Virus record (IMG/VR): IMGVR_UViG_3300031087_000527
Span: 209,384 to 259,022 of that record
Direction: 5' to 3' (one strand)
From: a virus
Lineage: Duplodnaviria > Heunggongvirae > Uroviricota > Caudoviricetes
DNA: 49,639 nucleotides
Positions 8,057-43,269 of this stretch are shown one piece after another. The notes beneath the pieces were generated by a model that searched no databases, was not told the origin of the DNA, and saw nothing but the letters and a program-made list of their open reading frames with translations. The translations under genes were made by a program, and so were the position numbers. Within the stretch, counting starts at the first letter, position 1. Every line of letters begins with the position of its first letter.

Positions 8057-9514
8057 ATGAGCGAGAATTATGTTTCACATTCAGTAAATCAGAGTGATGC
8101 GTTTAAAAATGCTATGCGTGAATCACTGCTGAAGATGTTTGAGCGTGATGATCTGTTAAAGACCGTCCACAGTGATGACATGCGTGTGGCGAAAGCTTTC
8201 CGCCTGGGTAATATCATTCATGTGTTTGAGCGTATGTCTGGTGGTGAAATCACTGCCTATCAGGATCAATGCTACGACTTCGAAGACGATAAATCTCTGG
8301 AAGCTCATTTACAGTATGGTTTAAGCTCTATGCGTGAGAAAAGCAAAGAGATTTATTCATGGCATAATGTGTTTAGCACTAAAACTGAACTTAGCGAAAT
8401 TGCTATGGACAGTGAAAAAATGGCTTTACTTGAAAACATGCTGAAAGATATGGAAGAAAAAGATCTGGTCCAATGCGATGATATTAAAGAGATAATGGCG
8501 ATGTTTAGCAAGGTGGGTGGTTTCGTAAAAACCACGTCCTCTATTGAATCTCTTATGCTCCTTAGTGATATTTTAGCTGAATATGTAGATATGGAGCGTT
8601 TCTCGTTTGAGTTCTATCTGAGTCTTGCTGAAGATGTTAAGGAAGGCGCTCAAGAGAAGATCAGTAACATCGTAGCTAAACGTTCGTTCATGGAACGGGT
8701 GTGCCGTGAGCAGGGCTTCAATACAGAAAATCGTTTCGAGTATAATGATCTGGATAACCATGTCTGGCTGGATGGTGAAAGTCTGGTGTTAAGCGATCAG
8801 AACTGCACTTTCCTGTTTGTAGGTGATAATAAAAACTTTACGGTATATTACCTGCCAACAGAATACAGTGGCTATGAAGAAGAAAAAGAAAAGCTTCAAG
8901 CTCTGCTGGAGGAAGACAAGCTTCACCACTCTATTGATTTCTTTGATCGTGTGGTTCTGCAGGTAAAAGAGGGTGTGGTGGAATATTCCAATGCGGGTTC
9001 ACTGACCTATTGTTTTGATTTAGATATGGAGTTTTCGGTTAAAGCCTTTGAAATGGAAGGTCTTGGCAAAGCTGAATATGATGTTGATGTCCATACGTAT
9101 GCTTATCAGCGTGATTATCATTTTTCGCGTCATGGTGTGGGTGAGGTTAACTTTATTCTGCGCACATTCCTGCTGTTGGGTGCGGGTCAGGAATATGATA
9201 AGGAAAAGGGGTCAATTTCATACAGCTTCCCTTATATTGGTGGGATGAAGCGAGAGCAAAATGCGCGGGACGTTTCATCTGAAGATGTTAAGGCGTATTA
9301 TCAGGCATCAAGTGTTGAGCATATTTTAAAACCGATCAAATATCTGAATGAGGAGTGGCTGGATGCGTTCAATTTCATGGTTGATTTTATTGAAAAGCAT
9401 AAGATTTACTCAGAGTTTGGAGATGATGAGCAAGCAAAAGAAGCAGAATATGAAAAGCTGATTGCTTATCTTAAAAAGAAACAAAAGCTGTTGAATAAAG
9501 CAGCTAAAAAATAA
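8057..9514 (+). CDS. Hypothetical protein, paralogue family A
   Basis: Start moved to the ATG after an AAGGA RBS; shares NRFEYND.DNH.WL...DQNC with 11020 and a G.G.EYD motif with 9589. Confidence 0.8.
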   Translation: MSENYVSHSVNQSDAFKNAMRESLLKMFERDDLLKTVHSDDMRVAKAFRLGNIIHVFERMSGGEITAYQDQCYDFEDDKSLEAHLQYGLSSMREKSKEIYSWHNVFSTKTELSEIAMDSEKMALLENMLKDMEEKDLVQCDDIKEIMAMFSKVGGFVKTTSSIESLMLLSDILAEYVDMERFSFEFYLSLAEDVKEGAQEKISNIVAKRSFMERVCREQGFNTENRFEYNDLDNHVWLDGESLVLSDQNCTFLFVGDNKNFTVYYLPTEYSGYEEEKEKLQALLEEDKLHHSIDFFDRVVLQVKEGVVEYSNAGSLTYCFDLDMEFSVKAFEMEGLGKAEYDVDVHTYAYQRDYHFSRHGVGEVNFILRTFLLLGAGQEYDKEKGSISYSFPYIGGMKREQNARDVSSEDVKAYYQASSVEHILKPIKYLNEEWLDAFNFMVDFIEKHKIYSEFGDDEQAKEAEYEKLIAYLKKKQKLLNKAAKK

Positions 9515-38824: not shown

Positions 38825-38923
38825 AGGGAGTTAGCTTATGGGTAAAGCGCGTTTAATATGTCTCGAAATTCTAGATAAGAGGCTGTAACTTAAACGAGAA
38901 TCCGGTTCGAGTCCGGCGCACCG
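38825..38923 (+). ncRNA. tRNA-like RNA A, anticodon arm extended (~35-nt insert), weak acceptor stem
   Basis: TA-GCTT-ATGGGTA-AAGC D arm; CGTTTA/TAAACG stem enclosing GTCTC/GAGGC; CCGG-TTCGAGT-CCGG T arm. Confidence 0.6.
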
Positions 38924-38995
38924 TTTGTGTAGCCTAACTGGTAAGGCACTATTAGCAATAGGTATGTGGAGTTCGATTCTCTGCCGCAAGCACCA
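38923..38995 (+). ncRNA. tRNA-like RNA B, shortened anticodon arm, encoded CCA
   Basis: GTTTGTG/CGCAAGC acceptor; GCCT/AGGC D arm; CTA-TTAGCAA-TAG; GTGGAG-TTCGATT-CTCTGC; ACCA. Confidence 0.7.
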
Positions 38996-39009
38996 AAGAG
39001 AGGTGAATA

Positions 39010-39417
39010 ATGTTAAAAGTGATTGTTAATGTATGCCCTTCGGCAAAGCTGAAAGAGATGTCGGGCGAGTCCGGCGTAATTTTGACGGATGCTGAGTTGT
39101 ATAAAATGCTGAATGGTGAAGAGAAGTTCGGACCATTTATGTATGACCAGAGCAATATCGAAGGTTTGGTCGATGCAGTAGTTGAAGCCAGTAAGGTAAA
39201 GGATATTGTGATCCATACTTTTAATTCGGGACTGCTTAACTGGTTTGAAGATAATGTGGCTATTTCTTCATTTTATGTGTTAAATGAGCAGGGCGAACCA
39301 GAGTTGCTTTTCAGCTATAAGCACATGTTAGAAAAGCTTGATTGTATGGGGCCTGGCGAAGCAGTGAGCGATACAGATTTCGAGAGATTCTCAGAAATCT
39401 ACGGTGAAAAAGCTTAA
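39010..39417 (+). CDS. Hypothetical protein resembling the C-terminal part of AAA/ABC ATPases
   Basis: LVDAVVEAS...VIHTFNSGLLNWF...GPGE; no Walker A; GAGGTG RBS. Confidence 0.65.
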   Translation: MLKVIVNVCPSAKLKEMSGESGVILTDAELYKMLNGEEKFGPFMYDQSNIEGLVDAVVEASKVKDIVIHTFNSGLLNWFEDNVAISSFYVLNEQGEPELLFSYKHMLEKLDCMGPGEAVSDTDFERFSEIYGEKA

Positions 39418-39425
39418 AAAAGTTG

Positions 39426-39461
39426 TTGCACTTCAGAAAGTCATTTGATAGAATGACTTTC
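39426..39461 (+). promoter_or_regulatory. Promoter with overlapping palindromic operator upstream of suppressor tRNA
   Basis: TTGCAC-17-TAGAAT; GAAAGTCATT-TGATAG-AATGACTTTC (39436-39461) covers the -10 box. Confidence 0.7.
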
Positions 39462-39482
39462 GTAGTGAGAAGGAAATAAAGT

Positions 39483-39556
39483 GTCTTTGTAGCTTAGCGG
39501 TAAAGCAGGAGTCTCTAAAACTCTGGACGCGGGTTCGAATCCCGCCATTGACACCA
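39483..39556 (+). tRNA. Amber suppressor tRNA (anticodon CUA)
   Basis: GTCTTTG/CATTGAC acceptor (two U-U); GCTT/AAGC; GGAGT-CT CTA AA-ACTCT; GCGGG-TTCGAAT-CCCGC; ACCA. Confidence 0.8.
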
Positions 39557-39558
39557 AC

Positions 39559-39707
39559 GGGAAAAATATAGACACGCATTCTCTTAGTTAGCGCTGACGA
39601 AAGAATGTGGAAGGTAGGCATCCTTTGGTCTATAAGTGAGGAACAGTATTGAGTCGCTCTCAGCTTCTGTTTTTCATCAGTGAGGTTCGATTCCTCTATT
39701 CCTGCCA
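39559..39707 (+). ncRNA. Giant cloverleaf RNA C (D arm replaced by 3-way junction, long anticodon arm, CCA)
   Basis: GGGAAAA/TATTCCT; TATAGAC/GTCTATA; CGCATTCT/AGAATGTG; GAGGAACAG/CTGTTTTTC; GAGG-TTCGATT-CCTC; GCCA. Confidence 0.6.
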
Positions 39708-39710
39708 AGT

Positions 39711-39832
39711 CGATAGTGTATAGGCGTTTAGTAAAGCAGGTGCTTCAACTATACAGGTGAACTGCCCGGTCAGCTTGCTTCTGACTGAATAAGGGATGGC
39801 GGTTATCAGAGTTCGAGTCTCTCTATAGGCCA
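39711..39832 (+). ncRNA. Giant cloverleaf RNA D (extended D and anticodon arms, CCA)
   Basis: CGATAG/CTATAG; TGTATAG/CTATACA; AACTGCC/GGCGGTT; GTCAG/CTGAC; AGAG-TTCGAGT-CTCT; GCCA. Confidence 0.55.
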
Positions 39833-39836
39833 TATT

Positions 39837-39921
39837 GCTCTGGTGGTGGAATCGGTAGACGCGGTGGACTCAAAATCCATTGCCGCAAGGCGTGAGGGTT
39901 CAAGTCCCTCCTGGAGCACCA
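39837..39921 (+). tRNA. tRNA-Leu (CAA)
   Basis: Canonical type II cloverleaf; GTGGA-CT CAA AA-TCCAT; variable arm GCC-GCAA-GGC; A73; CCA. Confidence 0.95.
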
Positions 39922-39928
39922 AACCAAG

Positions 39929-40001
39929 TAGTAAGTAGCATAATGTTTAATGCGCCATTCGTGTTAGAATGGAGATCTGAGTAGAAATCTCAGTTTACTG
40001 T
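39929..40001 (+). pseudogene. Degenerate tRNA (Asn-like GTT in an 8-nt loop)
   Basis: TAGTAAG/TTTACTG; GCAT/ATGC; CCATT/AATGG; CTGAG-TAGAAAT-CTCAG (non-consensus T loop); no CCA. Confidence 0.6.
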
Positions 40002-40060
40002 GCGGGAGTGTCAACGAAGGGGGCTATTTTGTAGAATGGCTACTTCGTGAGTTTGAAATT

Positions 40061-40253
40061 GGATGAGTGCCTGAACTGACAGGCAAGTGTAAGACCTGAT
40101 GGGAAGTAGATATCGTGGGATGTAATCGGTTAAGTAAGCGCGTTGTAAGACCACACTGTCCCAATAAACTACCTGCGAAATCTTTGCCCCGGTGAGACTC
40201 CGGTGTTAACTAGCAGGTAGCATAGACAAGCTGGAGATCAGTACCAGCCATCC
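40061..40253 (+). ncRNA. Structured RNA E in a tRNA-like frame
   Basis: GGATG/CATCC stacked on GCTGG/CCAGC; D-like GCCTG/CAGGC; inner CTACCTGC/GCAGGTAG, TGGGAT/GTCCCA and CCGG-TGAGACT-CCGG. Confidence 0.5.
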
Positions 40254-40275
40254 GAAAAAAATGGTAAAAAAGTAG

Positions 40276-40304
40276 TTGATTTTGAGTTTTGGTTTTGGTA
40301 AGAT
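40276..40304 (+). promoter_or_regulatory. Promoter for RNA F-M transcript
   Basis: TTGATT-17-TAAGAT. Confidence 0.65.
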
Positions 40305-40310
40305 GTAGTT

Positions 40311-40715
40311 CTTGAGGCGATGATGACTGGTGATGATTTCTGCCAGACTGTCTGTGAAGAGCAGAACGCTTAGCCTCCTTTTACGAAAATAGAAAACCTG
40401 ACCGCTCTGCGGATACCGTGGGGCGAGTGATTGGGGTAAGGTATACTGCGTGTCGTAGGTGCTTTACTTAAAGGCGGGAGAGGAATGATCATAGGCTCTC
40501 AAGATGTTTATATTAGAGTGCTGTATAAATGCCTACTACGCTCTACTGTGATGTGGAGCGAGTGTTCTGAAATAGGCGATTGGGGGGATGAACATTAGCC
40601 TCAACTTCCTCCCTCGAAAGAGGGAGTTGTTCTAAAGGTAGTAAAGAGCACAAGCAAATAACCGAAAGGCTTTGTTTTTAGTGCGGAAAAACTTGAGAGA
40701 TCCGATCTCTCAAGT
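40311..40715 (+). ncRNA. Candidate large structured RNA F (~400 nt)
   Basis: No credible ORF; CTCCCTC-GAAA-GAGGGAG, CC-GAAA-GG, CGCTCTAC/GTGGAGCG, GAGAG/CTCTC, and the perfect ACTTGAGAGA/TCTCTCAAGT. Confidence 0.55.
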
Positions 40716-40720
40716 CTAAT

Positions 40721-40867
40721 GTCGTGATAGTTTAGTGGTAAAACGCGAAGCGTAGTCTGAATAGGTAGGTTAAAATCCTGCTCTTTCCCTGAGTGGAAAG
40801 ATGTCCGAGTGTTTAGGATCAGATAGTAGTCTTCGAAGACTCCGGTTCGATTCCGGTATCGACACCA
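40721..40867 (+). ncRNA. Nested double tRNA G: tRNA whose anticodon loop is replaced by a circularly permuted tRNA
   Basis: Outer D GTTT/AAAC, AC CGAAG/CTTCG, T CCGG-TTCGATT-CCGG, ACCA. Inner 40755-40824: GTCTG/CAGAT, GTAGG-TTAAAAT-CCTGC, TCTTTCC/GGAAAGA, TG, TCC-GAGTGTTTA-GGA. Confidence 0.75.
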
Positions 40868-40870
40868 AAT

Positions 40871-40966
40871 ATTAGTAGCTTACAGGAAGCTGGTAAAGCG
40901 TTTCTCCGATTGATCAGGGATGTAAACTTTACATAAAGTCTGGTTCAACTCCAGATACTAATACCA
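40871..40966 (+). ncRNA. tRNA-like RNA J (perfect acceptor and T arm, non-decoding middle, CCA)
   Basis: ATTAGTA/TACTAAT; TCTGG-TTCAACT-CCAGA; ACCA; extended D-like hairpin GCTTAC/GTAAAGC. Confidence 0.65.
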
Positions 40967-41032
40967 GAATGCCTTTAGGTATTCCGTTTTTGACTAAGGA
41001 GCTTGACTCCAACTGATTCCAGTTAAATGTTC

Positions 41033-41277
41033 TGGTGGCGGGTGGAACCGCGAACAAAAAGTTACAGCCTACAAAGATGCGGCTGGGGAACGTAAAGCTT
41101 AATATCTTATGGGGCCAGTTTTAAGTTTCTGGCAAGCAGGTAAATCGGTTCGCTTCCAAGCTGACGGGTTTATTAATCAAAAACACCTGATGTTGCGGTC
41201 AGGGGCATGAATGACAAATGGGCGACATTGCTGAGTGTGTGACAACTTTGAATTTCACTCGTCCCCAAACGCCACCA
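41033..41277 (+). ncRNA. Candidate structured RNA K (~245 nt, closed by an 8-bp helix, ends in CCA)
   Basis: TGGTGGCG/CGCCACCA; hairpins CAGCC/GGCTG, GCCAG/CTGGC and CCTGA/TCAGG. Confidence 0.5.
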
Positions 41278-41282
41278 ATTTA

Positions 41283-41645
41283 AGGGTGGTTCTACTGTAG
41301 TGATACAGCAGAGTAGCTTATCCAAAGCAAAGGTTTCTCAGTGCTTTACCGAGTCCGAATGTGTACGCTTTGCTCGATCCGAAAGGATACTTGTTTAAAG
41401 ATTATCGTTCATTATGGGCAAAAGATGTGGGTAATCCTCGTTTAGGCGGGGATTATTCGAGGAGAAACGTGGACTTCTTTAACAACACACGCTTGCCATA
41501 GAAAGGTTGCTCGCTATGGAATCACAAGAAAGAGGATGTCTTAGCCTGACTTTAGGCTTAGCGCCTCTCTGTTAGCCTATTAGGAGAGGATTGTGAAATA
41601 GCAAAAGGCAAGCTCACTCTCAAACCGGTGTAGAGATGAGTCGCA
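41283..41645 (+). ncRNA. Candidate large structured RNA M (~360 nt)
   Basis: CTGTA-GTGA-TACAG, AGCAAAG/CTTTGCT, ATCC-GAAA-GGAT, TAATCCTCG/CGGGGATTA, CCATAG/CTATGG, TCACAA/TTGTGA, AGCCT/AGGCT, CCTCTCT/GGAGAGG; no ORF. Confidence 0.6.
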
Positions 41646-41676
41646 GCCCTTGTCCTTATTGGCCAGGGGCTTTTTG
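41646..41676 (+). terminator. Intrinsic terminator ending the RNA F-M block
   Basis: GCCCTTGTCC-TTATT-GGCCAGGGGC-TTTTT. Confidence 0.7.
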
Positions 41677-41798
41677 TTTTTCAGGTTTTAATTAGCCACA
41701 AACAAGTAAAGTGTTAAATTTCTTACATTTATTGACATTTTGATAATTAATGTTAGTCTTTTTGAGAGAATAATCTCAATAAATGGAGGATAAATATT

Positions 41799-41927
41799 AT
41801 GGCTTTAAAACCCGGTCCTAAAAGAATAGCTGAATCAACTGGAAAACCAGACCAGCGTCTGCGTGATAATAAAAAAACACCTGGAAATAATCCAGACGTT
41901 AAACCTAGCAAATCTTCAGGGAAGTGA
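41799..41927 (+). CDS. Small basic Pro/Lys-rich protein (42 aa, not in ORF track)
   Basis: GGAGG RBS; MALKPGPKRIAESTGKPDQRLRDNK...; own promoter and terminator. Confidence 0.7.
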   Translation: MALKPGPKRIAESTGKPDQRLRDNKKTPGNNPDVKPSKSSGK

Positions 41928-42025
41928 TGTCTGAATTTTTTAATTTGATAAGCCCTTCGGGGCTTTTTTTGTATTAGAGAACAGATAACCAATATTATTT
42001 TGCTTAAAATGGAGTAAGTGTATAG

Positions 42026-42514
42026 ATGACTAAAGCGAAAATGGGTAGAGCTAAAAAAAGTGACTATGTCATAATAACTGATGAATTATTAAAAGAGGCT
42101 GTAGAAAATAATATAAGTCTAGCTGGGGTTTTAAAATATTTAAACAAGAAACAAGCAGGAGGGACGCAAGCACATTATAAAAACAGAATAAACAGATTAG
42201 GGTTGAACTGTGATCATTTTTTAGGCAAAGGTCATAATAAAAATAAAACATGGGCTATAAGAAAAGAACCTAAAGATATATTGATAAAAAGAGAAGGTTA
42301 TATGAGACAAAGATCACATCTCTTAAGGAGGGCTTTGATAGAATCTGGAATCCCCTATGAATGTTCAGACTGTGGTTGTTGTTCAGAGTGGAGAGGTAGC
42401 CCCCTTGTTTTAGATGTTGATCATATTAATGAGGATTGGCTAGATGATAGAATTGAGAATTTGAGATTCCTTTGCCCCAATTGTCATAGTCAATATAGTA
42501 GAAATTTAAAATAA
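42026..42514 (+). CDS. HNH endonuclease within the tRNA cluster
   Basis: CSDCG...LDVDHINEDWLDDRIENLRFLCPNCHSQ. Confidence 0.88.
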   Translation: MTKAKMGRAKKSDYVIITDELLKEAVENNISLAGVLKYLNKKQAGGTQAHYKNRINRLGLNCDHFLGKGHNKNKTWAIRKEPKDILIKREGYMRQRSHLLRRALIESGIPYECSDCGCCSEWRGSPLVLDVDHINEDWLDDRIENLRFLCPNCHSQYSRNLK

Positions 42515-42517
42515 AGC

Positions 42518-42546
42518 TTGTTTTTCAAAAAGAGTTTATGTATAAT
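42518..42546 (+). promoter_or_regulatory. Promoter for RNA L / tRNA-Leu(UAG)
   Basis: TTGTTT-17-TATAAT. Confidence 0.65.
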
Positions 42547-42553
42547 CTTTTTA

Positions 42554-42619
42554 CTGGTTAGGGAATGACGGAGTGTTTCGCGAAGCACTGAGGTTCGAAT
42601 CCTCACATGAACTAACTGG
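42554..42619 (+). ncRNA. Small T-arm-bearing RNA L
   Basis: CTGGTTAG/CTAACTGG outer stem; GTGTTT-CGCG-AAGCAC; TGAGG-TTCGAAT-CCTCA. Confidence 0.5.
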
Positions 42620-42676
42620 AGGAAGGAGTGTATTCTAATATACTCTGAGAAGAGATAGAACAGCTTCTTCCGCAAT

Positions 42677-42761
42677 GCTCCGGTGGTGAAATTGGTAACC
42701 ACGCCAGATTTAGGTTCTGGTGCCGCAAGGTTTGTCGGTTCGAGTCCGACCCGGAGCACCA
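42677..42761 (+). tRNA. tRNA-Leu (UAG)
   Basis: GCTCCGG/CCGGAGC; CCAGA-TT TAG GT-TCTGG; variable arm; GTCGG-TTCGAGT-CCGAC; ACCA. Confidence 0.95.
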
Positions 42762-43269
42762 AACTCATTAGGATAACAGGTTAGACTGAGGCTGTTATTT
42801 TAAATCATCTTGTCTGGTATGAGTTCCAAGGGCAAGCGGGATAAGTTCGCTGAAGACGATATGGAATGCGAATGCTGACTGGCAGTTTCAACCAGAGGGT
42901 ATTTAACAGCAAACTAAAAATCTGAACAAACCTGATCATTGTTCAAATAAATATTTGATTTTACCTATTATCGATGTTATGCTTTATTTATTCACATAGA
43001 TAGTGAATAGATATTTTCATATGTTAATGGGAAATATATAACAACAAGAAATCTTTGTTAAATGAAATGGTTTGGATTGATTAATTAGGTTGTTTTCGTT
43101 AAAAAGCGTTATAATGGCCTTGATTTAACTATTGCTAATAGTGGTTTTAGTTATAAGCCCCAAATCATATTTAAAAGTGCTAACGAGTTTTTCTTCTTTG
43201 TGAAGGAAAATAGTGATAGCAGGAAAAAAGAGGTTGATGTTAGTTCACAACCTGCTTTATACGTTCATG

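Follow-up and report, generated by a model that had tools for sequence, protein, structure and literature searches.

What kind of gene occupies positions 40721-40867 of the window, where the two halves of a tRNA frame stand on either side of a second set of tRNA-like helices? The window, that is the whole stretch of DNA analyzed, is the terminal 49.6 kb of a 259-kb virus record, which has a G+C content of 38.7% and 21 tRNA genes according to ARAGORN. The element lies inside a plus-strand cluster of tRNA and tRNA-like genes that all share the same strand. No ORF of at least 50 aa overlaps 40721-40867, and the surrounding stretch is free of ORFs. An earlier note, made from the sequence alone, had proposed that a circularly permuted tRNA replaces the anticodon loop of another tRNA. 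We find that this conserved gene specifies a two-headed tRNA-like RNA that does not decode and is most likely a tRNA mimic, matured by tRNA-processing enzymes. Below we describe its architecture, its relatives and the tests of its fold, and we then weigh what the RNA may do.

Architecture of the 147-nt RNA

The whole gene (40721-40867, plus strand, as are all the parts described here) is 147 nt long and gives the single full-length match to model R1 in the 259-kb genome, at 177.6 bits. This model detected no second copy across the genome; with lower scores it matches ordinary tRNAs, which align to its outer frame, and other composite tRNA-like genes. The best of these is the neighboring CUA tRNA, which aligns to the outer frame with 38.9 bits and has the ends GUC...GAC-A-CCA in common with the element.

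The outer frame is split into two halves. The 5′ half (40721-40750) comprises the acceptor 5′ strand, read from the sequence as GUCGUGA (40721-40727), U8 and A9, a D arm (40730-40744) with a 4-bp stem and the loop AGUGGUA, and the 5′ strand of the outer anticodon (AC) stem, a 5-bp helix CGAAG/CUUCG (40746-40750 with 40831-40835). The 3′ half (40831-40867) runs from the AC 3′ strand (40831-40835) through a 5-nt variable loop (40836-40840) and a T arm (40841-40857; 4-bp stem, loop UUCGAUU) to the acceptor 3′ strand (40857-40863), the discriminator A73 (40864) and an encoded CCA (40865-40867). The outer tRNA frame of the earlier note therefore has its arms and its CCA, but it is less regular than a tRNA. 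In the window its acceptor is paired at only 5 of 7 positions, the mismatches 5-68 (U.U) and 6-67 (G.A) being adjacent, and the T stem is only 4 bp long, since position 66 (nucleotide 40857) pairs with position 7.

The outer AC stem encloses 80 nt (40751-40830), 70 of which form the inner, circularly permuted tRNA-like body (40755-40824), with each helix paired in 95-100% of cells. From 5′ to 3′, this body consists of the inner AC 3′ strand (40755-40759), a 5-nt variable loop (40760-40764), a 5-bp T arm with the loop UUAAAAU (40765-40781), a sealed acceptor hairpin (40782-40801), U8 and G9 (40802-40803), a D arm with a 3-bp stem and a 9-nt loop (40804-40818) and, after one nucleotide, the AC 5′ strand (40820-40824). 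The sealed acceptor is a perfect 7-bp helix, TCTTTCC/GGAAAGA, closed by a 6-nt loop (40789-40794), which places G+1 at 40795. Direct reading of the letters recovered every part of the frame and of the enclosed 80 nt where the earlier note had placed it.

A 4 x 6 internal loop connects the two AC stems; it is made of CGUA on the 5′ side (40751-40754; CGUA, CGUG or CAUA among homologues) and AGUAGU on the 3′ side (40825-40830), which together with the preceding GAU forms an invariant 9-nt stretch. The RNA thus has two elbows and no anticodon. The junction contributes 4 + 6 unpaired nt and contains no U33-type loop. Because both anticodon loops are absent and the two bodies are joined at that very place, the RNA cannot decode. 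By eye, the junction did not fit the consensus of a kink-turn or of a sarcin-ricin motif.

When compared with the defining features of a tRNA, the outer frame has, imperfectly, the acceptor, the D arm, the UUCRANY T loop and the discriminator with CCA. Acceptor, D arm and T arm features also occur in the inner body, save for an open acceptor end. A 7-nt anticodon loop on a 5-bp stem is what the RNA lacks, since its AC stem encloses 80 nt. The inner halves recall a serine-type D arm, but none of the tRNAs of the phage itself is a close match, and this lead was dropped.

Homologues in uncultivated jumbo phages

Eight homologues, representing six distinct sequences, were found on contigs of uncultivated jumbo phages (L015, L016, L019, L021, L032, L043, L062, and L075), and all eight helices are kept in them. 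A 135-aa ORF (39010-39417) beside the element has relatives in public assemblies that are 53-88% identical. On four contigs (L015, L016, L019, and L021) the element stands at the equivalent place relative to the relative of this ORF. Three more (L032, L043, and L062) were added by a pattern scan of metagenomes, in which 48 of the 51 matches proved to be either ordinary tRNAs in tandem pairs or tRNA frames carrying inserts of another kind. The last (L075, on a contig of 341,648 bp) came from a scan of IMG/VR. Model R1 scores the homologues at 160-178 bits.

The homologues share between 144/147 and 111/147 positions with the window, and conservation is highest in the outer halves. Within the inner body identity falls to 48/70 (69%), with the helices still fully paired. 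Positions 8-24 are invariant across the homologues, and all of them have a U at position −1 of the element. The CCA is encoded in 7 of the 8 aligned sequences and reads CCC in L015. In the outer acceptor, position 6-67 is unpaired in every homologue and 5-68 varies (U.U, G.U, G.A, and U-A). The junction 3′ strand GAUAGUAGU is invariant in all homologues, while variation occurs in the strand facing it, in the inner variable loop and in the loop that closes the acceptor. Its invariance next to unpaired segments that vary points to some sequence-specific contact, which this strand would make. We had considered a link between GAUAGUAGU, which holds two tandem UAG triplets, and the CUA tRNA; it was dropped, since L016 keeps the strand and no CUA tRNA is called in its 20-kb locus.

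The homologues also corrected one claim. The earlier note had seen a compensatory elbow pair, U19-A56, between the inner D and T loops. This pair holds only in the clade of the window. In the clade of L019, L043, L062, and L075, position 56 of the inner T loop is U while the D-loop equivalent of position 19 is still U, so that the proposed tertiary pair is not maintained there.

Most of the public runs in which the region occurs are metagenomes of plants, phyllosphere, seeds, food or soil. BLAST of the region, of the 135-aa ORF and of a 511-aa ORF against 50,697 deposited phage genomes gave no match, and no cultured relative was therefore found. A search of IMG/VR for related loci with two neighboring proteins found none, and exact or gapped DNA patterns in IMG/VR returned either no match or two chance ones that are not tRNA-like (L001 and L002). 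The pattern scan of genome contigs gave 0 matches and hence no clue to the host. The record itself (genome G000) is labelled a provirus by IMG/VR; it has only 45 ORFs of at least 300 aa in 259 kb, the biggest being of 663 aa. An 866-kb contig on record encodes a protein identical to the product of the window's 135-aa ORF.

Tests of the nested fold

The fold was tested on alignment A3 (8 rows, 7 distinct sequences). The nested structure pairs 95.4% of the cells, against 39-56% when the partners are slid by 1-3 columns. Both sides change at 11 of the 40 pairs, a level that none of 500 shuffles reached. Compensatory pairs occur in the outer AC stem (26-115, 27-114, and 29-112), the inner AC stem (38-101), the inner acceptor (62-81 and 64-79) and the inner D stem (84-98 and 86-96). 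In addition, the outer T-stem pair 123-135 changes from C-G to A-U, and the 7-66 pair covaries from A-U to U-A. These changes are spread over at least three branches of the small tree. The inner stems, for which the earlier note had expected covariation, are conserved, with both-side changes in the AC, acceptor and D stems.

RNAalifold, run from the alignment alone, recovered the same eight helices, plus a C31-G109 pair. Both this result and the pairing in homologues agree with the nested topology, with the permuted body at the anticodon position. By comparison, reading the locus as two tandem cloverleaves pairs 50% of the cells in the four differing helices, no better than shuffles, which bears out the view that neither linear half can fold alone. 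The single-sequence MFE fold of L043 is the nested fold (base-pair distance 4). That of the window sequence differs from it (−39.1 versus about −32 kcal/mol), as the weak A-U-rich outer D/AC region mispairs, and its MFE z-score of −1.2 is not significant. Such mispairing and non-significant z-scores are usual for tRNAs.

Taken together, the kept helices, the compensatory changes and the agreement with RNAalifold argue that the predicted nested fold is real and under selection, and they exclude a recent recombination accident.

Comparison with known RNA families

ARAGORN did not call the element, with or without its intron mode, and found no tmRNA. Rfam at gathering thresholds gave nothing on the element. 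When the Rfam search was relaxed to E values up to 10, the tRNA model (RF00005) matched 40726-40783 over model positions 6-65 with 23.3 bits, below the cut-off of 29; this match spans the outer 5′ half and the inner 3′ half. At the same threshold the permuted tmRNA model (RF04321) matched only 15 nt of the outer T arm (9.5 bits), and two further matches were meaningless. The suspicion that no family describes this fold is thus confirmed for Rfam, the tRNA match being below threshold and YrlA giving none. Our search of the full-text literature found no description of a tRNA nested in a tRNA. The two-headed shape was found in no database or paper searched and is apparently undescribed.

The earlier note's comparison with YrlA (RF02553), a Y RNA of bacteria and mycobacteriophages, is apt for the inner permuted domain with its loop-sealed acceptor. 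In both RNAs the domain follows the permuted order T arm, loop-sealed acceptor and D arm, and the equivalent of the anticodon stem links it to the rest of the molecule (PMC4201824). The difference lies in the carrier: in YrlA the domain sits on a Ro60-binding stem and the gene lies beside rsr, whereas here the carrier is a second complete tRNA frame with CCA. Among four features that mark YrlA, the element has the permuted sealed-acceptor domain and lacks the match to the model, the rsr neighborhood and the Ro-binding stem.

T4 rnaC (species 1 RNA, 139 nt) and rnaD (119 nt; AF158101) resemble the element in size and in their position at the end of a tRNA cluster, one that holds a homing endonuclease. 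T4 rnaC also has an acceptor-like stem and a canonical T arm. In its predicted fold, however, long plain hairpins replace the D and anticodon arms, and there is no second T loop or permuted body. Neither T4 RNA has sequence similarity to the element.

The two-piece permuted tmRNA (RF04321) has a permuted tRNA-like domain whose acceptor is opened by processing, which leaves two base-paired pieces. It differs in having a tag reading frame, pseudoknots and the alanine identity pair G3.U70, none of which is present in the element. In the permuted tRNA genes of Cyanidioschyzon merolae and some archaea, the 3′ half precedes the 5′ half and the acceptor ends are linked by a short linker. From such permuted and split tRNA genes, a splicing endonuclease that acts at a bulge-helix-bulge motif produces ordinary decoding tRNAs. 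The element, by contrast, lacks an anticodon loop, and its permuted unit remains joined to another tRNA. Discontiguous tRNA genes are covered elsewhere (PMC3400036).

The surrounding RNA island

The element is part of an RNA island (about 40013-41680) that is 75-92% identical in relatives. Just upstream, a perfect 9-bp hairpin in the 5′ leader (40692-40714, plus strand) ends 6 nt before the first nucleotide of the element (G40721), in the flank and outside the RNA body. It belongs to a 213-nt unit with two strong hairpins (40506-40718) that directly precedes the element. This unit is without counterpart in L016, L043, and L075, where the unit equivalent to 40265-40505 abuts the element. Downstream, after 3 nt, comes the next tRNA-like RNA, "RNA J" (40871-40966, plus strand), a presumed co-transcribed neighbor, followed immediately by a terminator-like hairpin (40967-40984). 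RNA J is conserved together with the element in L016, L019, L021, and L032.

On either side lie the long ORF-free stretches 40013-40505 and 40968-41680, which are candidate large structured RNAs with no Rfam match; a good terminator is found at 41652-41670. Contigs from a seed metatranscriptome cover parts of both stretches. RNA-library contigs of two further studies cover parts of 40968-41680, and one of them also covers about 39988-40216. The next segment (41681-42508), with a small ORF (41801-41927) and an HNH endonuclease (42026-42514), has no counterpart in relatives, and one RNA-library contig joins 41674 to 42540 with different letters between. This segment resembles a mobile element that has inserted into the RNA island, much as segB lies in the tRNA cluster of T4.

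In a wider region (38825-44372) we observed an island of tRNA-like genes without a normal anticodon loop. At least nine genes are anticodon-less, and only three are decoding genes (CUA, Leu-CAA, and Leu-UAG). For instance, in the gene at 38923-38995, which scores 31.1 bits with the Rfam tRNA model and is not called by ARAGORN, the anticodon position holds a 5-bp stem closed by only 3 nt; the gene at 38832-38916 has a 7-bp stem enclosing about 33 nt. U.U mismatches occur at 4-69 and 5-68 of the CUA tRNA (39483-39556), which is of the amber-suppressor type; CUA tRNAs were likewise called by ARAGORN in L014, L015, L019, L020, L021, L032, and L043. Recoding of stop codons was considered and rejected: opening TAG or TGA barely lengthens the ORFs genome-wide, so global recoding is unlikely.

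Composite tRNA-like genes with large inserts at the anticodon position also occur elsewhere in the same genome, at 44223-44372 in the window and at L011:2018-2235, L010:2112-2335 and L010:2424-2558. Their matches to R1 are weak (8-25 bits), and the 218-224-nt pair in L011 and L010 has the same GUC...GAC-A-CCA ends as the element. In unrelated metagenomic phage contigs (L030:4806-4939, L047:9016-9144 and 8881-9007, L056:333-476, and L072), tRNA frames with the same D arm have the anticodon loop replaced by structured inserts of 55-85 nt, which on visual inspection are not permuted tRNAs.

Proposed maturation and function

Overall, the explanation that we favor, with somewhat better than even confidence, is a conserved two-headed RNA that is matured by tRNA-processing enzymes and perhaps acts as a decoy. 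The element would be transcribed as part of the surrounding tRNA and tRNA-like gene cluster. In one study, two seed metatranscriptome runs yielded contigs over the element region (40553-40868 and 40523-40774); as these show neither ends, strand nor levels, this RNA-library cover is a weak hint of expression. The RNA island has a far greater k-mer depth in RNA libraries than the flanking gene, but since contig depth cannot rank genes we used presence only. The segment 41724-42443 has no RNA-library cover and was given no weight either way. In a promoter scan, sites were no more frequent than in shuffles, and the promoters picked by eye fail the criteria of the scan.

By established tRNA biology, host RNase P would cut the 5′ end at G40721 and exonucleases would trim the 3′ end to the encoded CCA. 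G40795 is a second plausible RNase P site, as the sealed 7-bp inner acceptor would stack on the 5-bp T stem. Given this canonical 7 + 5 bp minihelix in the inner head, RNase P may open the RNA at G40795. Such a cut would leave two base-paired, tRNA-sized pieces of about 70 nt each, like those of Mycobacterium smegmatis YrlA, whose sealed 7-bp acceptor is cleaved by RNase P, both in vivo and in vitro, before CCA is added (PMC4201824). The functional ideas of the earlier note, a decoy or scaffold or an RNase P substrate that yields a domain-swapped dimer in two pieces, are thus plausible. In the outer head, the imperfect minihelix, with its mismatches and 4-bp T stem, could weaken recognition by RNase P, a CCA enzyme or a synthetase. 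No gene for RtcB or for a CCA-adding enzyme was found in the 259-kb record.

The RNA keeps the parts that are read at the acceptor and the elbow and has lost the part that the ribosome needs, and it may therefore mimic a tRNA for tRNA-binding factors. We tentatively suggest, as a speculative possibility, that it occupies or diverts such factors, for example as a decoy for defense toxins that modify CCA ends. The toxSAS and MenT toxins act on the CCA ends of tRNAs, and FaRel2 is reported to choose its tRNAs through inspection of the acceptor stem (10.1101/2021.04.30.441581; 10.1101/2024.07.05.602228; PMC9712102; PMC10435456). A decoy of this kind could work without disturbing decoding, and an abundant, non-decoding one would suit the threat of a CCA-modifying toxin. 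The element is kept in phages whose neighboring 135-aa protein is only 53-88% identical. The presence of at least nine anticodon-less genes in the wider island suggests heavy investment by these phages in RNAs aimed at the tRNA-handling machinery of the host, not at the ribosome.

Alternative explanations

The main rival of the decoy reading is that the tRNA-like units of the island are processing punctuation, that is, RNase P and 3′-end signals that release and stabilize the neighboring large non-coding RNAs and have no function of their own as free RNAs. The decoy idea is drawn only from which parts are kept and which are lost, and a role as processing signal predicts much the same. The parts that RNase P reads (acceptor, T arm, elbow, and CCA) are kept, the tRNA-like units directly abut, and the element lies between the two conserved ORF-free stretches, which are 75-92% identical in relatives. 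Punctuation, however, needs neither a full second tRNA-like body with compensatory changes nor an invariant 9-nt junction strand, and the element is retained where its upstream neighbor 40506-40718 has no counterpart. We therefore regard this explanation as doubtful, though a serious one.

A more elaborate version of the decoy reading, which we think rather improbable, makes the RNA a fused head-to-head tRNA dimer. RNase P would open the inner acceptor, CCA would be added, and the product, a two-piece particle with two CCA ends and two elbows that lacks an anticodon, would serve as an abundant bivalent decoy or scaffold against host factors that read acceptor ends, such as CCA-modifying toxins.

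The element could also be a decoding tRNA gene with an 80-nt intron whose excision yields a normal tRNA. All tRNA arms and an encoded CCA are indeed present in the outer frame, and the intron mode of ARAGORN calls other insert-bearing tRNAs in the same genome. Yet what would remain at the junction (4 + 6 nt, including a G in the place of U33) could not form a canonical 7-nt anticodon loop, no Rfam intron family matches at E values up to 10, and the insert has tRNA features under structural selection. Moreover, bacteria are not known to have a protein-dependent tRNA splicing pathway. This makes an intron very unlikely.

Equally improbable is a Y RNA of the YrlA type, which would dock on the Ro60/Rsr ring of the host and so tether that ring to an exonuclease, even though the permuted tRNA-like domain with its loop-sealed acceptor is of the same kind as in YrlA (PMC4201824). 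The YrlA model had no match at E values up to 10 on 40600-41000. A search for TROVE/Ro60 (PF05731), in which the controls were positive, gave 0 matches in the 259-kb phage record. The would-be Ro-binding stem is the outer AC stem of the tRNA frame, which covaries freely (CGAAG to GGAAG to GAAGG, with compensation) and carries no conserved Ro-binding motif.

Finally, a recombination accident, in which two tRNA genes exchanged halves and now persist as a pair of pseudogenes, accounts for the linear resemblance to two tRNA-length units with swapped halves but is largely refuted and hardly tenable. At least six distinct sequences, which come from different samples, retain the element, with compensatory changes specifically in those helices that would be "swapped" (the outer and inner AC stems and the inner acceptor). 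The element also gains nothing over shuffles when read linearly, has halves that are not close to any current phage tRNA, and shows 69-97% identity, which speaks against one recent clone.

Implications

Both viruses and bacterial regulatory RNAs make repeated use of tRNA mimicry. The mimics known from bacteria and phages, including YrlA, T4 rnaC, tmRNA and recently solved tRNA-like motifs, place one tRNA-like body on another platform. In the conserved two-headed RNA described here, the platform is itself a second tRNA, so that the molecule would be rigid, with two elbows and at most two acceptor ends. Comparative analysis indicates that it is kept by selection in uncultivated jumbo phages, mostly from plant, food and soil samples. 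If the head-to-head dimer decoy were true, it would represent a class of RNA-based counter-defense distinct from replacement tRNAs. A partner, if found, would give a testable entry to the non-decoding tRNA-like RNAs of phages, a question that dates from the sequencing of the T4 species 1 and 2 RNAs in the 1970s.
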